Shown in pieces: positions 4,094 to 45,299 of a DNA stretch of 58,124 bases. The stretch is from NCBI GenBank assembly GCA_000442015.1, contig KE561324.1, positions 62,001 through 120,124 of the forward strand, read 5' to 3'. The number at the start of each line of letters is the position of its first letter. Within the stretch, counting starts at the first letter, position 1. Below the pieces are notes generated by a model, which worked only from the letters and a program-made list of their open reading frames with translations, was not told the DNA's origin and made no database searches. The stretch is from Rozella allomycis CSF55 (taxonomy: Eukaryota). The translations under genes were made by a program, and so were the position numbers.

Positions 4094-5269
4094 TTAATGG
4101 CTAAAACATTCAGTAAACAACACAACTAGAAACACAAGAAAAAATATCAACAGAAATGCTACTAGATACACATATTGAAGGGGGACAACATAGTTAAGTA
4201 CTACGCTGGATACCGCCAAGTAGATCAACACAAACCACTTGATATTCTTTCTTCTCAACACTCCATACAAATTAGACAATGATGGCACAAATTCAGCTGG
4301 GGCTACATCAGGCATTGGAACTGCAGTTTGGTCAGATGGGTATAACGTAAATAAAACATAATCATTCTCTTCCACAGACATTTGTTTAAAATACTCTCTA
4401 ATTGACGATTTCATTAAAAAATCATCATCGGTTGCGAAATATTCAAGATCAAAAGTCAATGGCTCTGGATCATTCTTAACCTTGACTGGCTTGGTTGATA
4501 TTTCATCGCTATAATATGGATTCGGTCTAATGTCAATCATAGACACTGCATGGACTTTGAGGAGCGATTGTCTTTCTTCCGTAAAATTACACTGTTTTTC
4601 AATAGATCGCGATCTTGTATGTCTCTTTTCCTTTCTCATTGTCCGTGCAGGGAACAAGTCAGAGAGAGCTGAATCCTTGCTGGATTTCAGCGTGGTTCGT
4701 GACACATCTAGAAGACTCTCCCAATCTCCCGATGAAAATCTCTTGCTTTTACATTTCACTTGATTTTCTGTTCTCACACTCGACTGTATAATTTCACCCA
4801 CACTGTCATTGTACTGCATGTTCCATGCTTGTTTTGCAAGATCAGATGGTATCTTATAGTAATGCACATCCCCAACAACAGTCATGTTATTCAATGGATT
4901 CCTTGCCTTCATGCGATGCAACAATCCTTCTTCAGGCTGCGTTCGAAATAAAACCTTATTTATGTGATGGGCCTGATAGATGGAATAGAACAACTTGCCC
5001 GATTCGTCTTGCGTAGTCACCCGCGCTAGAATGAAATCCTTGTTTGCTTTAATAGCCATCTGGAACAAACTCGTAAACGTCTCAAACGTAAATATATCTT
5101 CAATAGACCCATCAACACTCTCAACCACATCTCTCGTCCCTTCAACATCCGGTGTTTTCATCAATCGAAACTTCACAGGAACAGAGCTGGGTAGCTCCTT
5201 TATCCATGGCTCAGTATCTTTTGATCTAGTTTCAATAATCTTCTCATTCGTTGGTATCGGCATATACAT
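4094..5269 (-). CDS. Uncharacterised protein with two C-terminal TM helices (DUF5092-like)
   Basis: 391-aa intronless ORF. DFILARVTT...Y.AHHINKVLFR...KARNPLNN is recalled as the DUF5092 family of microsporidia and early fungi (not verified). Confidence 0.55.
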   Translation of the reverse strand: MYMPIPTNEKIIETRSKDTEPWIKELPSSVPVKFRLMKTPDVEGTRDVVESVDGSIEDIFTFETFTSLFQMAIKANKDFILARVTTQDESGKLFYSIYQAHHINKVLFRTQPEEGLLHRMKARNPLNNMTVVGDVHYYKIPSDLAKQAWNMQYNDSVGEIIQSSVRTENQVKCKSKRFSSGDWESLLDVSRTTLKSSKDSALSDLFPARTMRKEKRHTRSRSIEKQCNFTEERQSLLKVHAVSMIDIRPNPYYSDEISTKPVKVKNDPEPLTFDLEYFATDDDFLMKSSIREYFKQMSVEENDYVLFTLYPSDQTAVPMPDVAPAEFVPSLSNLYGVLRRKNIKWFVLIYLAVSSVVLNYVVPLQYVYLVAFLLIFFLVFLVVLFTECFSH

Positions 5270-13971: not shown

Positions 13972-14182
13972 ATGGTTGAGAAATAGTTTCCAACAGTAAC
14001 ATAATTATAAATCATAAAAAAGTAATATATCATCATCATGCTATCAATGTCTTCCTGGCAACAAAGATGCCTNTATGGTTGAGAAATAGTTTCCAACAGT
14101 AACATAATTATAAAATCATAAAAAAGTAATATTAATATATCATCATCATGCTATCAATGTCTTCCTGGCAACAAAGATGCCT
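13972..14182. repeat. ~100-nt near-perfect tandem duplication flanking a single N (probable scaffold-join artefact)
   Basis: 13972-14072 is repeated at 14075-14182 with small indels; the N lies at 14073. Confidence 0.85.
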
Positions 14183-17700: not shown

Positions 17701-17893
17701 CTTTTAAAATTATTACTGGACTAAGAGTTTTCTTACAAACTTGCGTTCTCAACGGCTCATAGTCTGCAAATCTAATTTCTACAAAAGCGTCGGTTAATTC
17801 CGATGTCCTGTCCATTACAGGTAAATCCCTCGCTCCTATTACTCTAACCTCGTGTATTCACTTATTTTTTGTTACTTTAAGAATACATGGCAT
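14796..17893 (-). CDS. C2CD5: C2 domain-containing protein 5 homolog
   Basis: Spliced N-terminus MPCILKVRVIGARDLPVMDRTSELTDAFVEIRF; RDTWWTELRDEIKSHARALGC; 7 introns of 26-29 nt. Confidence 0.88.
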
Positions 17894-18813: not shown

Positions 18814-18888
18814 ATAAATTTTTAAGTAATGAATGGTGTGCTTTTACTGTCATTTTTAATCTTTCCTTGTTAAAATAGTGGCTTATAT

Positions 18889-19959
18889 ATGGACACCAAA
18901 ATTTTAGAATTTCCTCCAGTAAAACGAAAGACTGGAGGAAAGCATTCATATCTATACGAAGAAATAGACTTTTTTGAAAATCTCAATATTAAAAGGGCAG
19001 TAAAATCTCTAAAAGAGGGTTCTGTGGTTGCCATTCCCACCGAGACGGTTTACGGTCTCGCTGCAGATGCATTTCAACCCGAAGCAGTCAAGAAGATTTT
19101 TCAAGTGAAAAACAGACCCCAAGACAACCCATTAATTGTTCATATATCTTCATTCGAGATGCTTGAAACTTTAATAGCGAAACCATTACTAGAAAAAGAC
19201 AGAAATATTCTGGAGCATTTTTGGCCGGGTCCATTGACTGTACTGTTTGAAAAGAGTCAAAATGTTGATGATATTGTGACATGTGGCCAATCACGAGTTG
19301 CTGTTAGAATGCCATCACATCCCATCGCTCGAAGTTTAATTTCTCAGCTTGGCTCACCATTAGCGGCACCATCAGCCAACTTGAGTGGAAGACCAAGCCC
19401 AACTACAGCAGCACATGTATTGAAGGATTTAAATGGAAGGATTGAGTATATTTTAGATGGAGGCAGTTGTCTTTCTGGATTGGAATCCACAGTTTTAGAT
19501 ATTGATAGTGAGACTATTTTGAGGCCTGGTGGAATTACGTTGGAAGATTTAAAAGAGGTGCTACCGAATGTAAAAGTTTATGTTAAAGGGACGGATGAAA
19601 ATATGGAAAATCGGCCTGCTACTCCAGGGATGAAATATAGACATTATGCACCAAATGCAAAAGTATTAATTTTTGAAAACAAAAGAGATTTAATTGAGCA
19701 CGCTGTGACATTGAAGAATGAAGATGGTGGAGTGAGAATTGGTTTGATGTATTCTGATGAAGATTTGTTGGCGAAGAGGGAGTTGTGGCATGAGATTCAT
19801 TATCTGGGAAAGACTGTAGATGATGTTGCATTTAACTTGTTTGATGGGTTAAGAAGTTTGGATTCATTTGAATCGGATGTAATTTTGGTGGTTAAAGTTC
19901 CGGCGATTGGGACTGGATTAGCGGTGATGAATCGTTTAGAAAAAGCAGCAAGTTCTTGA
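18889..19959 (+). CDS. SUA5: Threonylcarbamoyl-AMP synthase
   Basis: Motifs PTETVYGLAA, KNRPQDNPLIVH, APSANLSGRPSPT and PGMKYRHYAP. Confidence 0.96.
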   Translation: MDTKILEFPPVKRKTGGKHSYLYEEIDFFENLNIKRAVKSLKEGSVVAIPTETVYGLAADAFQPEAVKKIFQVKNRPQDNPLIVHISSFEMLETLIAKPLLEKDRNILEHFWPGPLTVLFEKSQNVDDIVTCGQSRVAVRMPSHPIARSLISQLGSPLAAPSANLSGRPSPTTAAHVLKDLNGRIEYILDGGSCLSGLESTVLDIDSETILRPGGITLEDLKEVLPNVKVYVKGTDENMENRPATPGMKYRHYAPNAKVLIFENKRDLIEHAVTLKNEDGGVRIGLMYSDEDLLAKRELWHEIHYLGKTVDDVAFNLFDGLRSLDSFESDVILVVKVPAIGTGLAVMNRLEKAASS

Positions 19960-19998: not shown

Positions 19999-22350
19999 TT
20001 ATTTTTCTTCTTGTTTTTCTTCATCGTCACTCTCAGGAAAAACTTCGCCGTATTCTTTTAATTTTGATTTGTAAAATTTCACTTCTTGTTCTTGTTCACC
20101 AACGCAGGCTAAAAGATCGTTGAATTGTTCCTTTTCGTTTAAAAGTTCTGTTTCTTTAGTCTTTAATTGAACTAGAAGCTTTTCAACATTTTCTGAAAGG
20201 CTTTTTATTGTATTTTCAAGCTCTTCAATCTTTTTGGTGAATTGAACTTCTTTTTCTTGTTTTTCTGATTCTAATTTTTCAATTTTAAGTTTTAATGATT
20301 GAATTTCTTTATCTTGATTAGATTGTGGCTTGGAACTCTTCTTTTTAGAAAAAGCGTCATGGACGACAATTGAAGCTCGTTTAAAAAAATCTACAAATGA
20401 ATTATCAAAATAAATTTCTGAATTTTCAGGCATTTCCAAAGTTTTCGATACTTGAAAGAATGGGCTGTCTGAAATCCTTTTAAGTCTTGAAAAGAACAAA
20501 TCTAGTCCAATCCTTGTGGTAACAATTGGCAGCAAGTCACTCTTTTTTATTTTAGAGTCATCTGTGAACTCATATGAAATTCCTAACAACAAGGCAGCTA
20601 AACCCTGCACAATATTGTCAACCCCTGTAGATTGACTAATCAACTCGATAAAGAATTGAAGTCTATAAGATTCATTAAACACCAAAGAAATTGATTTTGG
20701 AGATTCAAATGCTAAATAGCAGAGTAGTTCCAAGTAAGCAATCGGAATTCTTTGATTAACGTTATTTTCTCTTGATGAGGCTATTAATTGTTCTGTTATA
20801 CTCTCAATTAATGAAATTTCTGTCTTTTCTCCATATTTAACTCTTTAACTTCAAACTCCAGTCTTACCTGTTGGAATCATAAATTCTGGTGCATAACTCT
20901 TGTGTTCTTCGTTAAACAAAGATCTAATAAAGAAAGACGAGAATAAAACTCTGTAAGAATCTTTTCTAGAATTTTGCCAATCGAGCAAAGTATGAAGAAT
21001 CAGATTTGGCAAAGTCTCTTGATTATCAAGATTCTTTAGCTGTTCAAATAAAGCGCCCGACAATTTATTATTTCTGCACATTAAACACAAAATTAAAAAC
21101 ATATATGATAACTTACTTCTATTAAGTAAACTGAAGCTAAACGAATTGGTAGATGATCAACCCTGGTATACAAGTTGCGACCAAAAAACAACAATGCAGA
21201 CTCATTCTCAGTGTTTAAATTAAAAATATATTCTTGATTTTTTTCAAAACCACGAATCATATCGGCTACAGTGTAAATGGCACTGGTTTTGACAGACTCA
21301 TCAAAGTCAGTTTGGCTCAAAAGAAAATGTGTAATTTTAAATAATGCCTGACTAGAATAGAGACAATTCTACTTAAATTCAAGAGTTTAAAAATACTTGA
21401 TTGAGATTGGTAGATTGTGAATCTGGAAATACCAAAATTCTAATCAGTTGGAGCGCCTTTTTAAAATTGTTAATCATCTGTCTAGTCTTTTTTTCTTCCG
21501 TTTCTAGATTGTCAAACAAATGCACCAGTTTATTGATACAAGCAGTTTCTCTAAAATAATTCTGTAACATGCGATTAACTATTTTACTTGATTTGATACA
21601 TTATAATGAAGAAGATTAATCATCAATTGCAAACAATCTTGAACTACTATATCCCCCTTCAGTGACCCTTGCTCAAAAATAATCTCAAGACATCGTTCAA
21701 ATGTATTTTCAAACGCAATAATTTTCTGTATCTCGGCATTAGACTCCGTCAATGAGATTAATAAAAGAATTCCCTCTGTTCAAGAACCATATTTAAACCA
21801 TACCATTCCTCAACACTTCATTCTCCGCATCAAGCAAATCAACTAGCTTTGAAACACCCATAGGCGCAATAATTAATCCTTCTTGCAACTCTTCCGGTTT
21901 TTGCTTTAACAGCAACGACATGAATTGTATGGTATCATACCGCACATGAAAATCAGCAGCATCCAGCATATTAACAATCAAGCTAACATTACTAGCATCC
22001 TATCACACACAAATAACTATTTTTACCTTTACTACCATCTCTGAAAACTGAAGGCCTTGGTCAGTATCCGAACAAACATAGTTTAATGCTTCTATTACAG
22101 CCTTGGACATGTCCAAATCTTCCATATCGCTTGACTGCAGTGCTTTAATAAATAAATCTAATCCTTTGGTTCCTACAAGTAATGGGTAATCCTTGGAAAG
22201 CCCTTTCAATGCCTTTAATGCACCTCTGCGATCATCAAGAAGGGTAGCATGTCGAAATCGATCACAGAGTTTGTCAATAGTAATATCTACAGAGGGTTGT
22301 TCTGCTTTATCGCCTAAAAGTGCGTTGTAACTGTTTGCCAGAAAATTCAT
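19999..22350 (-). CDS. USO1: Vesicle tethering factor USO1/p115
   Basis: Motifs ATLLDDRR, DFHVRYDTIQ, IQKIIAFEN and IVQGLAALLLGI; short coiled coil; 6 introns, including GT-TG at 21088-21116. Confidence 0.9.
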
Positions 22351-31026: not shown

Positions 31027-31650
31027 ATGATAGTTACGGAAATTCTTGCTGCTATTTTCTTTGGAATTACAGGACTACTGTTTCTCTTTTGCGGTAAAAG
31101 ACTATTTAAACCATCGCTCTTTATTGCTGGTTTCTTGTTGCTCTCCATTCTTATCACTGAACCAATAGCTGAAAGCAAAATCGGTCGTGAATTATCAGAT
31201 GGAGCGTTCATTGGAATGTTCATAGGAATCGGGTTACTAGGTGGCTTTCTTGCATTTACGTTTTGGAGAATAGGCCTGGCATGTTTTGGTGGTTTGGCTG
31301 GTTTCGCAGTTGCTGTTAACATTCAAAATTGGCAGGTTGGCGGTGTTATACCTAACGTGGAGGGTAGAATAGGGCTGATAGCATCCTTTGTTTTGCTGGG
31401 CATAGTTCTTTCGTATTTCTTTGAAGAGCTAGTCATAATTGTGGGTACATCTCTTACTGGAAGCTTTTTGGTCCTGTTTAGTGCCGATCTCTTTGCGGAT
31501 ACAAAATATGGTGACAATCTAAGAGCAATCACTAATGTTAACGGAACTACTATCACTCAAGGTACTCTCCTTGGGTTCCAAATTTCTTTTTGGATAATTG
31601 CGTTAATAGGATTTTTAGCTCAATACTTTAGCACCAGAAATATGAAATAG
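31027..31650 (+). CDS. TMEM198/TM7S3 (DUF4203) membrane protein
   Basis: G.RLFKPSLFIAGF, GGLAGF and I.GTSLTGS; paralogous to 48015-48775. Confidence 0.75.
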   Translation: MIVTEILAAIFFGITGLLFLFCGKRLFKPSLFIAGFLLLSILITEPIAESKIGRELSDGAFIGMFIGIGLLGGFLAFTFWRIGLACFGGLAGFAVAVNIQNWQVGGVIPNVEGRIGLIASFVLLGIVLSYFFEELVIIVGTSLTGSFLVLFSADLFADTKYGDNLRAITNVNGTTITQGTLLGFQISFWIIALIGFLAQYFSTRNMK

Positions 31651-32996: not shown

Positions 32997-34815
32997 TTAT
33001 TGAATTGAGTATTCATCTGGTATAATTTGAATTTGTTTAGAAAAGGTTATCGGTTCTCCAGAGTTAACTTGTGCCACTGAAATAATCTTTTTAAATCATT
33101 AAAGCATTATTACCTCTAAATTTGACATTAATGTTTCAGATTTGAAATAGGCGTCTACGGGAAAGAAGTCGTTGGAGGAAGAAATATCGTCTACCGAAAA
33201 CTCTAAAATTCCATTGGATGTATTTTTGTCGATAACTGGAATAATCCAAGAGAGAGTTCTATTTAACCGATCGTATCTGTGTTCTCCTACTATTTCTTGT
33301 ACGATTGGTTGTTGATTAGAACTATTTATTAAATCGATTGAGAATTAATACGGGATGTGAATTTGAATCATGACGTCAGTTAAAATCAGGTCGTTTCTTA
33401 AGAGTTCATATTCAACATTGACGTCAGCATGACCCTTGTCGCAAGTGGGCCAGCAAGTAACTTTAAAAAAAATAGGAAAGACATACTTGATAAAGGAATT
33501 TGATCTTCATCTTGAGAAGTAAATCTCCATTTTAATAAGCCTAAGGATTGATTAAGTGGCAATGGTCTATTAGGATCTCTGAGTACCAAAACCTTTTCAT
33601 TTGCGAAACTCTTCTTATCAACGTTTGGATGAGTCATTTAATGTAAAAAGAAGAGATTACTTTAAATTGATAATTTTTATCGTCTGAATGAGAACATTGA
33701 ATCTTTAGACAAGTTTTGTCATTGTCTGACACCAAAATGGATAGTTCGCCTTTAACTTCGAAATGATGAATACCTCCATCTCGTGATACAGCCATTTCAA
33801 TTCTCTCTTCAGCAGTTATATGAACCCTTGTAACATTTAGAAGGGAAATTTACGAGTCTTTTTGAATGGAATCTATTGGGGCAATAGAGGCAGACTCAAT
33901 TGGATAACTTTCTGACGATGGACTAGTGAATACAGATTCTGAAAACCCAGTTTCTTTCTTTACAATATCCATCAACTCTGCGCCCTTTTCTTTCCTTCCA
34001 AGTTTCATCCCACGGCTTGGATTGGCAATAATCCTACAGTTGAGATTTAAATAAAGCACTACGTTGAGGGCTCTTTAGGCTTTGGTTGTTCATACTGCCT
34101 AACGTAGTTAGTCTCCACAGGCATGGAAGAATACTCCATCCCACTTTTCATACCACCCATGCCTGTCGCAAAGCTTGCTCTTTTTTGTTCTCTTCTTTGC
34201 ATTTCAAGTTGCTTAGCTTTTAATTTAGCAGCTTCGCGCGCTTCTCTCTCTTTCATCCTTGCTAGAGCTTCTTGGACTCGTTCATCGTGTGAATCCATTT
34301 CAATAATTGTCTTTAGCTGAGAAACACTTAAACTTTCTCTATATCCCATATTCACTATTTCATCAAATGCAAAAATTAATTCAAAGGCATTCTTTTTAAC
34401 CTTTTCATCTAAATGCCTTCAATTTACTTGCTCTTCGTTGACTGTTTTGCAATACTCGGGAACTATCCTTGCAAATAAATGTAACGTCTCTAAATCCTAT
34501 ACTTAAATGCACAATTTTTTACCAAAAGTATATTAGACGTCTTTGTAGTAAGCATCACCAAATAGAGGCTCTCCATAGGTTGATATACAAACCTAAGATC
34601 GTCACTCTCCACAAAAGTATGCTCTTGTCCTTCATCTATTAATCTTGGAAATGATGCTAAGAGCCCTTCAACTTTACTACGAGACATTTCGACAAATTGA
34701 CGAGACACCAGAGCTAAATTTGTTGCAATAAATTAAATATTTACCATTTCCATTTTTATTACATAACGCAACTGCTAAAACAGACTAGCTTTCATACACT
34801 TATTTTACTTACCAT
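32997..34815 (-). CDS. RET2: Coatomer subunit delta
   Basis: [26 protein letters not shown] and QFK/THPNVDK; 10 introns, including GT-TG at 33635-33660. Confidence 0.95.
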
Positions 34816-38724: not shown

Positions 38725-39408
38725 ATGAACTTTAGATTCTTTTCTACCGAATTGTTCAACAAAGTTCTCAAAAACACACCGAAACCAACCTCCCATAAAT
38801 ATTACTTGGAGCTCCTACAAGTTCCATCTCATTTTACCAAGAGCGATCTTTTCCATATTTACAAGCTTCCTCTACGATATCTGCCACATTTTCAATGTAA
38901 AATGAAGTTTTAGATATATTAAAGTCTCTAATACCCGATATAACACGTCCAATAACCGTTCCTGGATAATGGTTTTCGACGATCTCGAAAAGATGCGCTA
39001 TCTCAAGGAAAAGATGAATGAAGCTTTCAACAAACGCCCTCTAGAAGACCGCATAAAGATACGAGAAGGAGAAAGTGTACAAGCGGATGACTACATTGTA
39101 ATTGAAAAGGTTGGTTCACCTTTGATGCTTCGAAATCTACCGCTTGATACTAGTATAGGAGATTTACAAGAAATTACAGCGGATTATTTAAAGGTTAGTG
39201 TGGAAGAAGCGGATCCATACATTATCATAGAGTCAAAAAAGTAATTGTTGGTTGAATTGGAGACAGGGATAATGAGGAATCAAGCGAAAAGTGTGTAAAT
39301 GCTATAGTTCGATTTGCCAATGAAAAGGAAGCGGCCAAGGCAATGTTGGATTTACATAAACAGGAATACAAAGGTAGACTTATATTTTCTAGATATTTTG
39401 ACCAATAA
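38725..39408 (+). CDS. RRM-containing protein, possibly mitochondrial
   Basis: LMLRNLP...NAIVRFANEKEAAKAM..LHKQEYKGR; 2 introns; presequence-like N-terminus. Confidence 0.55.
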
Positions 39409-44061: not shown

Positions 44062-45299
44062 TTATTTCAATTTACGAAGTCTTGCGATGAAGAATCCACT
44101 AATCCCGGAACACAAAGGATCAAATCTTATGCACTTTGGCAAGGTCACTTTTCCCGGCTGAACTTTTGATGGTAAAAATGTATTAATGTCTTCTAAAACT
44201 GCATTAGGGGTGGCTCTCAAAAATTTTCTAATTATATTTTCATTTTGAGATTGAGTTAAACTAAATCTCATGTAAATGTTGATTACCTGCAAGTCGAATA
44301 GACCAACACGCCGTCTGGTTTTAACAACTTGTATCCATTTTCTAATAGTCGATACTTTTACTTATTAAAAGTATATTTACTTGTAAATCATATAACCCTT
44401 CAAGGGCAGCTTGATCCTGGATCCTCTTAAGAAAATTATCCCACTGATTAAATTCGACACACGACTTTAGATAAAAACGTAGTTTTACTTTGAGAATATG
44501 CCTTAAGGAACCATCATGTGTACATTCTGCATCAACCAAAACCTTATCATACAATGAGTTGCAAGAAATATTCGCTCGCCTCTTAAAAATATAGGATTCA
44601 TGGAATAGCGTTGGATCATCCGACTTTTGGAGCTTTGTTTTTCTTTTCTTTTGAAATGGTTCAAAAATGTTCGGAAGTTCATCTGGCGCCAGTTTGTCAA
44701 AAGTTGTCCCGTCCGTGCAATAGACTCTAGCCTTGTTGACTTTCATCCGCTTCATTATCGAGCGGCAATTATTTAATCTGGATAATGAAATATCAACGCC
44801 AGTCACACTTCCAATTCCAGAGTCACCAAGTTTGGATGCAATTACTGACAACTTTGTTCCTACTCCAACAAAAAATCCATTATTACCAGGAGCACAGCAC
44901 AAATCTAAAACTTTATCATTTGGGTTAATATCTAATGTTTCAACAGCCACTAGAGAACTTAGATCTATTCCAATAATCTAGACAAGAAAATGAAACAATC
45001 AATACCTTCCGTTCTTTATACCTAGATGTTATCAGAATCTTTAATCATTACAGAGAAGATGAGGCAATTTTGGTCGTTCCACTTATCTGGAATACATAAT
45101 CGTAGGGTGGTTCTAATTTCAGTACGCCCGGAAATTCTTTTTCTATTGTATCTGTTTCCAAAGGGTAAAGAGTGTTCCATATAAAATATCTAGGTGTTTC
45201 AACTGAATAAACTTTTGGATCCACACCTTCTTTATTAAGAAAGTCTATGAAAGCATCAGGAAAATTCATCTCAAAAGTTGAAAAATCTTGAAGCCACAT
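44062..45299 (-). CDS. RNA m5C methyltransferase (RsmB/NOP2/NSUN family)
   Basis: VLDLCCAPG/TK, DKVLVDAECTHDGS, LVYSTCS...QNE and SGFFIARLRK; about 6 introns. Confidence 0.88.

Follow-up and report, generated by a model that had tools for sequence, protein, structure and literature searches.

Where does the fifth intron of the USO1 gene of Rozella allomycis end? Introns of U2 type end almost universally with AG, one of the most constant signals of eukaryotic genes. In USO1 of this fungal parasite, a candidate intron of 29 nt starts with GTAAGT and stops with TTG. The gene lies in a stretch of 58,124 nt from contig KE561324.1 of R. allomycis CSF55, which is called the window below and whose positions are used throughout. 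This eukaryotic DNA is rich in AT (GC content about 0.35). Judging from homology and from intron length, we estimate a probability of about 0.7 that the segment 21116-21088 on the minus strand is a spliceosomal mini-intron, removed at a UG 3' end and not at an AG.

Structure of the USO1 gene

The minus-strand gene at 22350-19999 is USO1/p115, which encodes a vesicle-tethering protein. The earlier note had given it this name, and the Pfam, public protein and PDB matches agree. The Uso1_p115_head domain of Pfam (PF04869) was found on exon 7 with an E value of 8.3e-37 (profile positions 147-306), and more weakly on exon 6 (profile positions 81-131). Uso1_p115_C (PF04871), which covers the C-terminal coiled coil and the acidic region, was found on the last exon with an E value of 5.7e-08. 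The public protein matches the solved p115/Uso1 heads 3gq2 (E 4e-79), 2w3c (E 2e-65) and 6lst (E 1.7e-53) in PDB, and the mammalian p115 segment that the note had compared is indeed contained in the 3gq2 chain. As many as 1556 library proteins match USO1 at E<=0.001. The last exon is 100% identical to the corresponding part of EPZ31021.1, annotated as 'Vesicle tethering protein Uso1/P115-like' of R. allomycis CSF55.

When the seven exons are joined by coordinate, with 77 nt removed at the fifth intron, they reproduce EPZ31021.1 exactly. Therefore five of the six introns are fixed, with lengths of 27, 28, 26, 28 and 27 nt, and all of them are GT-AG. On the minus strand, exon 1 (22027-22350) starts with the ATG at 22350 and is followed by intron 1 (22000-22026, 27 nt), exon 2 (21804-21999), intron 2 (21776-21803, 28 nt), exon 3 (21588-21775), intron 3 (21562-21587, 26 nt), exon 4 (21397-21561), intron 4 (21369-21396, 28 nt) and exon 5 (21117-21368). 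Beyond the fifth intron, exon 6 would occupy 20868-21087 if the TG is used; then come intron 6 (20841-20867, 27 nt) and exon 7 with the stop codon (19999-20840), which encodes the last part of the head as well as the coiled coil at the C-terminus. On the plus strand, an intronless open frame of 361 codons (18874-19959), which looks of Sua5/YrdC type by eye, faces USO1 tail to tail at a distance of some 40 nt from the USO1 stop codon. Single N bases occur in the window at 14073 and 22629; the latter lies upstream of USO1, about 280 nt ahead of its ATG.

What are the possible 3' ends for the fifth intron? Exon 5 ends with ATA GAA, and the proposed intron at 21088-21116 (29 nt, GC 0.17) runs from GTAAGT to TTG and is followed by TGT TTA ATG TGC AGA AAT, just as the earlier note had quoted it. 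The account of the reading frame in that note was also correct. Removal of the 29 nt keeps the frame and predicts a product of 728 aa with no stop, and removal of 43 nt up to the first AG past the donor (21074-21075) puts the downstream codons out of frame, with a stop two codons past the joint (index 376). The note's view of the splice choice needs to be amended in one respect: the GT-TG joint is supported, but an alternative with a canonical end was missed. Removal of 77 nt (21116-21040), up to the AG at 21040-21041, is GT-AG and in frame too. It costs 16 codons (21040-21087, CLMC...FEQ), which are intron in the public models and coding if the TG is used.

Both public annotations, EPZ31021.1 and RKP22202.1 from a single-cell assembly, have chosen the 77-nt intron. 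If they are right, the protein is a p115 minus 16 residues, and the open 48 nt together with their likeness to p115 are left over from an acceptor that was lost recently, or are due to chance. We consider this unlikely. That the intron is GT-AG, in frame and taken by two annotations speaks for it; the evidence from the protein family and from intron lengths is given below. Nor are the 77 nt a stack of mini-introns, as AG is absent between positions 6 and 42 and no internal AG lies ahead of position 43. Two other readings were set aside. Donors other than GTAAGT do not help the 43-nt AG, for exon 5 has no phase-compatible GT. U12-type introns are marked by an ATATCC or GTATCC donor and a TCCTTAAC branch site; the donor here is GTAAGTTA, and TCCTTAAC is absent from the 29 nt.

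Homology at the USO1 joint

Which of these joints fits the protein family? A profile was built from 104 orthologues of 600-1300 aa, taken from the 151 best non-self library matches and two others, with each member cut to its first 760 residues. Against this profile, the product of the 29-nt removal matched as a single unbroken domain with 649.4 bits. The product of the 77-nt removal scored 619.5 bits and was split into two domains at the joint, so that the TG joint is ahead by 30 bits, which tells against the public model. The 16 extra residues sit on conserved profile columns without any gap. The gapless fit to p115 put forward in the note, for which an alignment with orthologues was the suggested check, is thus borne out by the 104-orthologue profile.

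Is such a fit expected by chance? When the 16 residues were shuffled 200 times, the scores were 635.1 +/- 3.0 with a maximum of 644.6, and none of the 200 reached 649.4. All 32 in-frame removal lengths from the USO1 donor, from 2 to 95 nt, were also scanned. The scan gave a sharp peak at 29 nt. The runner-up was 26 nt with 641.6 bits, a second TG at 38 nt from the donor gave 638.3 bits, and a removal of 44 nt, which corresponds to the 43-nt AG plus an indel error of 1 nt, gave 633.7 bits. Since no shuffle reached the score of the 29-nt product and the maximum of the scan falls exactly at 29 nt, the fit is beyond chance. In addition, the frame that these 16 codons use is the sole stop-free one out of three in the 48 nt at 21087-21040.

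There are also observations against the TG joint. Both MAFFT and phmmer could place the shortened product on the orthologues with a gap of only 3 residues, putting KNLDNQ on their KN.D.Q. In codon usage the 48 nt score poorly, with a value of 0.09 that ranks at the 4th percentile among 16-codon windows taken in frame from USO1, which fits the 77-nt intron. When exon 6 alone was searched against PDB, there was no match at E<=10, and this also points against the TG reading. A position-weight score of the intron ends did not separate the candidates, with 5.2 for the TG at 29 nt, 5.2 for the AG at 43 nt and 3.5 for the AG at 77 nt; the 45 introns used for its training have a mean of 2.4 +/- 2.3.

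Other data sets were searched for USO1 as well. A metagenome scan with the USO1 protein gave 46 pattern matches, with no relative among them. A single metatranscriptome run labelled as this species gave one contig of 243 nt, with two short pieces of low likeness at the 3' end of USO1, away from the joint.

A second TG-ended candidate in the delta-COP gene

Is USO1 an isolated case? The survey of introns in the window brought up a second candidate, which is stronger than the first and lies 12 kb away, in the gene of coatomer delta (about 34732-33100, minus strand). It is a mini-intron of 26 nt at 33635-33660, GTAATC...ATG, and its removal would join ...YQFK to THPNVDKK.... The public models RKP21384.1 and EPZ31028.1 have a 47-nt GT-AG intron here, by which THPNVDK is lost. 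The motif HPN[VIFL]DK was found in 28 of the 50 delta-COP orthologues, and the logic of the public USO1 model, if applied to delta-COP, would remove this conserved segment, which speaks against that logic in USO1 too.

On a profile of the 50 orthologues, the product of the 26-nt removal scored 164.8 bits versus 129.7 bits for the annotated 47-nt intron. Shuffling of the 7 residues (n=200) gave 141.0 +/- 3.9 with a maximum of 155.6. Among the removal lengths scanned, 26 nt gave the highest score, and stops arise with any removal of 2-20 nt. The Pfam domain Adap_comp_sub matches the upstream exon with its positions 15-72 and the downstream exon with positions 73-112, so the two matches abut exactly at the joint.

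Do relatives have an intron at this place? Two metagenome loci (L068:3490-3600 and L070, which are identical to each other over the part compared and have a GC of 0.35 and 64% identity in the best segment) contain a GT-AG intron of 51 nt at this very codon boundary, reading ...LQ/THPNIDKK. Since a GT-AG intron occupies the same delta-COP codon boundary, the position is shared with this environmental relative, in which the 3' end is canonical. Four other metagenome loci with the motif have no intron there, and in a further one, L050, the motif was not found. It is likely, as far as sequence comparison can tell, that Rozella splices some of its mini-introns at TG, and the public models of USO1 and delta-COP are probably wrong.

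Then might these genes simply be broken? In such a scenario the first AG of the USO1 intron, at 43 nt, is used, or splicing is poor, so that most USO1 transcripts are frameshifted and the copy is decaying or is kept at a low productive level. The first-AG rule is common in fungi, and the 43-nt AG is preceded by a TTAAT element similar to that ahead of the TG. Yet the remaining USO1 gene is intact, with 728 codons and 649 bits against its orthologues, and it would be unlikely for two such genes to be broken within 58 kb. As both USO1 and delta-COP otherwise keep intact and conserved reading frames, decay is not credible, and we regard the whole scenario as quite improbable. In yeast, moreover, neither USO1 nor the delta-COP gene (RET2) is dispensable, which also speaks against decay.

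Could the TG be an error of assembly or base calling? One T-to-A change at 21089 would be enough to give a true end of TAG and a canonical 29-nt GT-AG intron; alternatively, an indel of 1 nt would put the 43-nt AG in frame. Two Ns are indeed present in the window, and 5 of the 712 residues of USO1 are not the same in the two assemblies. However, delta-COP has the same TG end. Because this would need two identical errors at position -2, in two introns within 58 kb and among about 47 mini-introns, base-call noise is not credible; the version with an indel scores 15.7 bits below the 29-nt product. Weaker arguments against an error are that the USO1 model of the single-cell assembly has the same 712-aa structure and that the delta-COP model structure is also common to both assemblies; in either case the second annotation may have taken the first as its starting point. 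An error is therefore very improbable. In delta-COP, 1 of 483 residues differs between the two assemblies. For both genes the window has the EPZ sequence: the joined USO1 exons equal EPZ31021.1, and the delta-COP open frame has the P of EPZ31028.1.

Other candidates from the surveys of the window, which were made by ORF pairs and around donors and are noisy, were rejected. Among 18 candidates ending in TG, 10 shadow a GT-AG intron that starts from the same donor, and the remaining ones, except for delta-COP at 33660, are GC-rich or in doubtful frames. Further places with non-AG candidates were discarded: at 17886 the ORF on the upstream side runs antisense to a gene of the plus strand, at 38897 and at 4340/4347 the plus strand appears to be antisense to coding sequence, and at 31351 a 39-nt GT-AG intron is possible.

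Intron length and the choice of the 3' splice site

Does the length of Rozella introns help to decide between 29 and 77 nt? Candidates were counted around each donor; they had to start with GTA, to be flanked on either side by a coding-like open frame, and to have their read-through blocked. For lengths of 26, 27, 28, 29, 30 and 31 nt, there are 9, 19, 15, 4, 3 and 2 GT-AG candidates in the window. Elsewhere within 15-200 nt there are about 2 GT-AG candidates per length, and AG does not outnumber TG, AA or AT, therefore the counts outside 26-31 nt are background. From 35 to 200 nt, GT-AG introns show no excess over this background in the window, and the lack of any excess beyond 31 nt argues against a 77-nt intron. 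As the peak is at 26-31 nt, with its mode at 26-28 nt, the 29-nt intron falls inside the lengths of the window and the 77-nt intron far outside.

A heuristic set of 45 GT-AG mini-introns has a similar distribution, with 9 of 26 nt, 14 of 27, 15 of 28, 2 of 29, 2 of 30 and 3 of 31; all of them were picked on a GTA donor and some may be false given the background. The candidate intron of USO1 resembles this set in its GTA donor (GTAAGT), its length within the 26-31-nt peak, its A/T-rich 3' part and its low GC (0.17 versus a mean of 0.27). Its removal restores the frame and a conserved protein. Unlike the GT-AG mini-introns, it has no terminal AG and ends with TTG.

How frequent are TG ends? At 26-30 nt, 12 TG ends were found by a crude ORF-based count, which is about the background; there is no overall excess, and this counts against the TG reading. 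With USO1 and delta-COP taken as the two cases, TG ends make up 2 of about 47 mini-introns of the window (4%, 95% interval 0.5-14.5%). USO1 has a T at -3 and delta-COP an A; from the TG to the end of the following AG it is 14 nt in USO1 and 21 nt in delta-COP.

One possible mechanism is that the 3' cut in the tiny introns of Rozella is set mainly by the distance from the 5' splice site and the branch region. The terminal G would be retained, and a U would be tolerated at -2 in place of the usual A. The AG 14 nt further downstream in USO1 might be ignored, or might aid early recognition as in the TG-AG tandems of human, or might yield unproductive frameshifted RNA. Public models restricted to GT-AG would then end up with the 77-nt intron in USO1 and lose 16 residues from a helix pair of the armadillo repeats. 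More generally, introns of 26-31 nt in Rozella might have their 3' end picked mainly by distance, with the final G alone needed, and a few per cent of them might be TG-ended and constitutively spliced there. We see about even odds for this general form. If it holds, Rozella would be the first eukaryote known with frequent, non-alternative and non-AG 3' splice sites of U2 type, and many public Rozella models with 'long' GT-AG introns would be wrong.

Length-measured splicing has parallels in other ultra-short introns, such as those of Paramecium (about 25 nt) and of the Bigelowiella nucleomorph (18-21 nt). The very narrow length range of Rozella introns is like theirs, and suggests that splice sites are paired by measured length. 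A difference is that, to our knowledge, the introns of Paramecium and of the Bigelowiella nucleomorph are strictly GT-AG.

TG 3' sites have been described in human. According to the parts of Szafranski et al. (2007; PMC2374985) drawn on here, they occur in 36 genes, where they are always alternative to a nearby AG and never the sole site; about 0.01% of candidate TGs are used, and in the TG-AG tandems the AG is within 28 nt. The same parts of PMC2374985 describe human mutants with AG changed to TG, in which no splicing at the TG was seen, a result that counts against the TG reading. Such mutants switch on neighbouring AGs instead (PMC2374985, same parts), which speaks for the 77-nt intron of the public model. 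Compared with the human U2-type tandems as portrayed there, USO1 and delta-COP share a GT donor, a TG 3' end and an AG at most 28 nt away, although such an AG is expected by chance in most sequences, and USO1 also shares a pyrimidine at -3. In contrast to those human tandems, the TG of Rozella would have to be productive and would probably be the main site, since the AG alternative frameshifts USO1 or drops the conserved motif of delta-COP. The rate of about 2 in 47 introns and the intron length of 26-29 nt, not an ordinary length, also set Rozella apart from the human cases given in these parts of the study.

In the literature on Rozella splice sites, short introns and RNA-seq gene models, we found no paper on non-AG sites. 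A 2026 paper presents Rozella GTPase models curated by unpublished RNA-seq (PMC13393502), for which it thanks T. Y. James, and non-AG sites are not mentioned in those passages and the one supplement of it that we drew on.

What would follow for other studies? If a few per cent of these introns depend on TG as their only productive site, Rozella would offer a natural system for site choice in the second step of splicing at a fixed intron length. If the TG reading is true, EPZ31021.1 and RKP22202.1 for USO1, as well as EPZ31028.1 and RKP21384.1 for delta-COP, have internal deletions of conserved residues, and comparative work that uses Rozella as the sister lineage of Microsporidia would inherit such errors of the models.

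Two minor observations concern canonical mini-introns. Some of those in the window end with ...TGTAG, that is, with a TG three bases ahead of the AG (donors 2616, 3453, 3591, 18433, 52432 and 34062, among others), and they may have a bearing on the competition between TG and AG. At 44978-45051 on the minus strand, a 30-nt GT...AG unit is directly followed by a unit starting with GTA (44 nt, or 16+28). The arrangement resembles abutting mini-introns between two coding blocks, for which a plain removal of 74 nt is out of frame.
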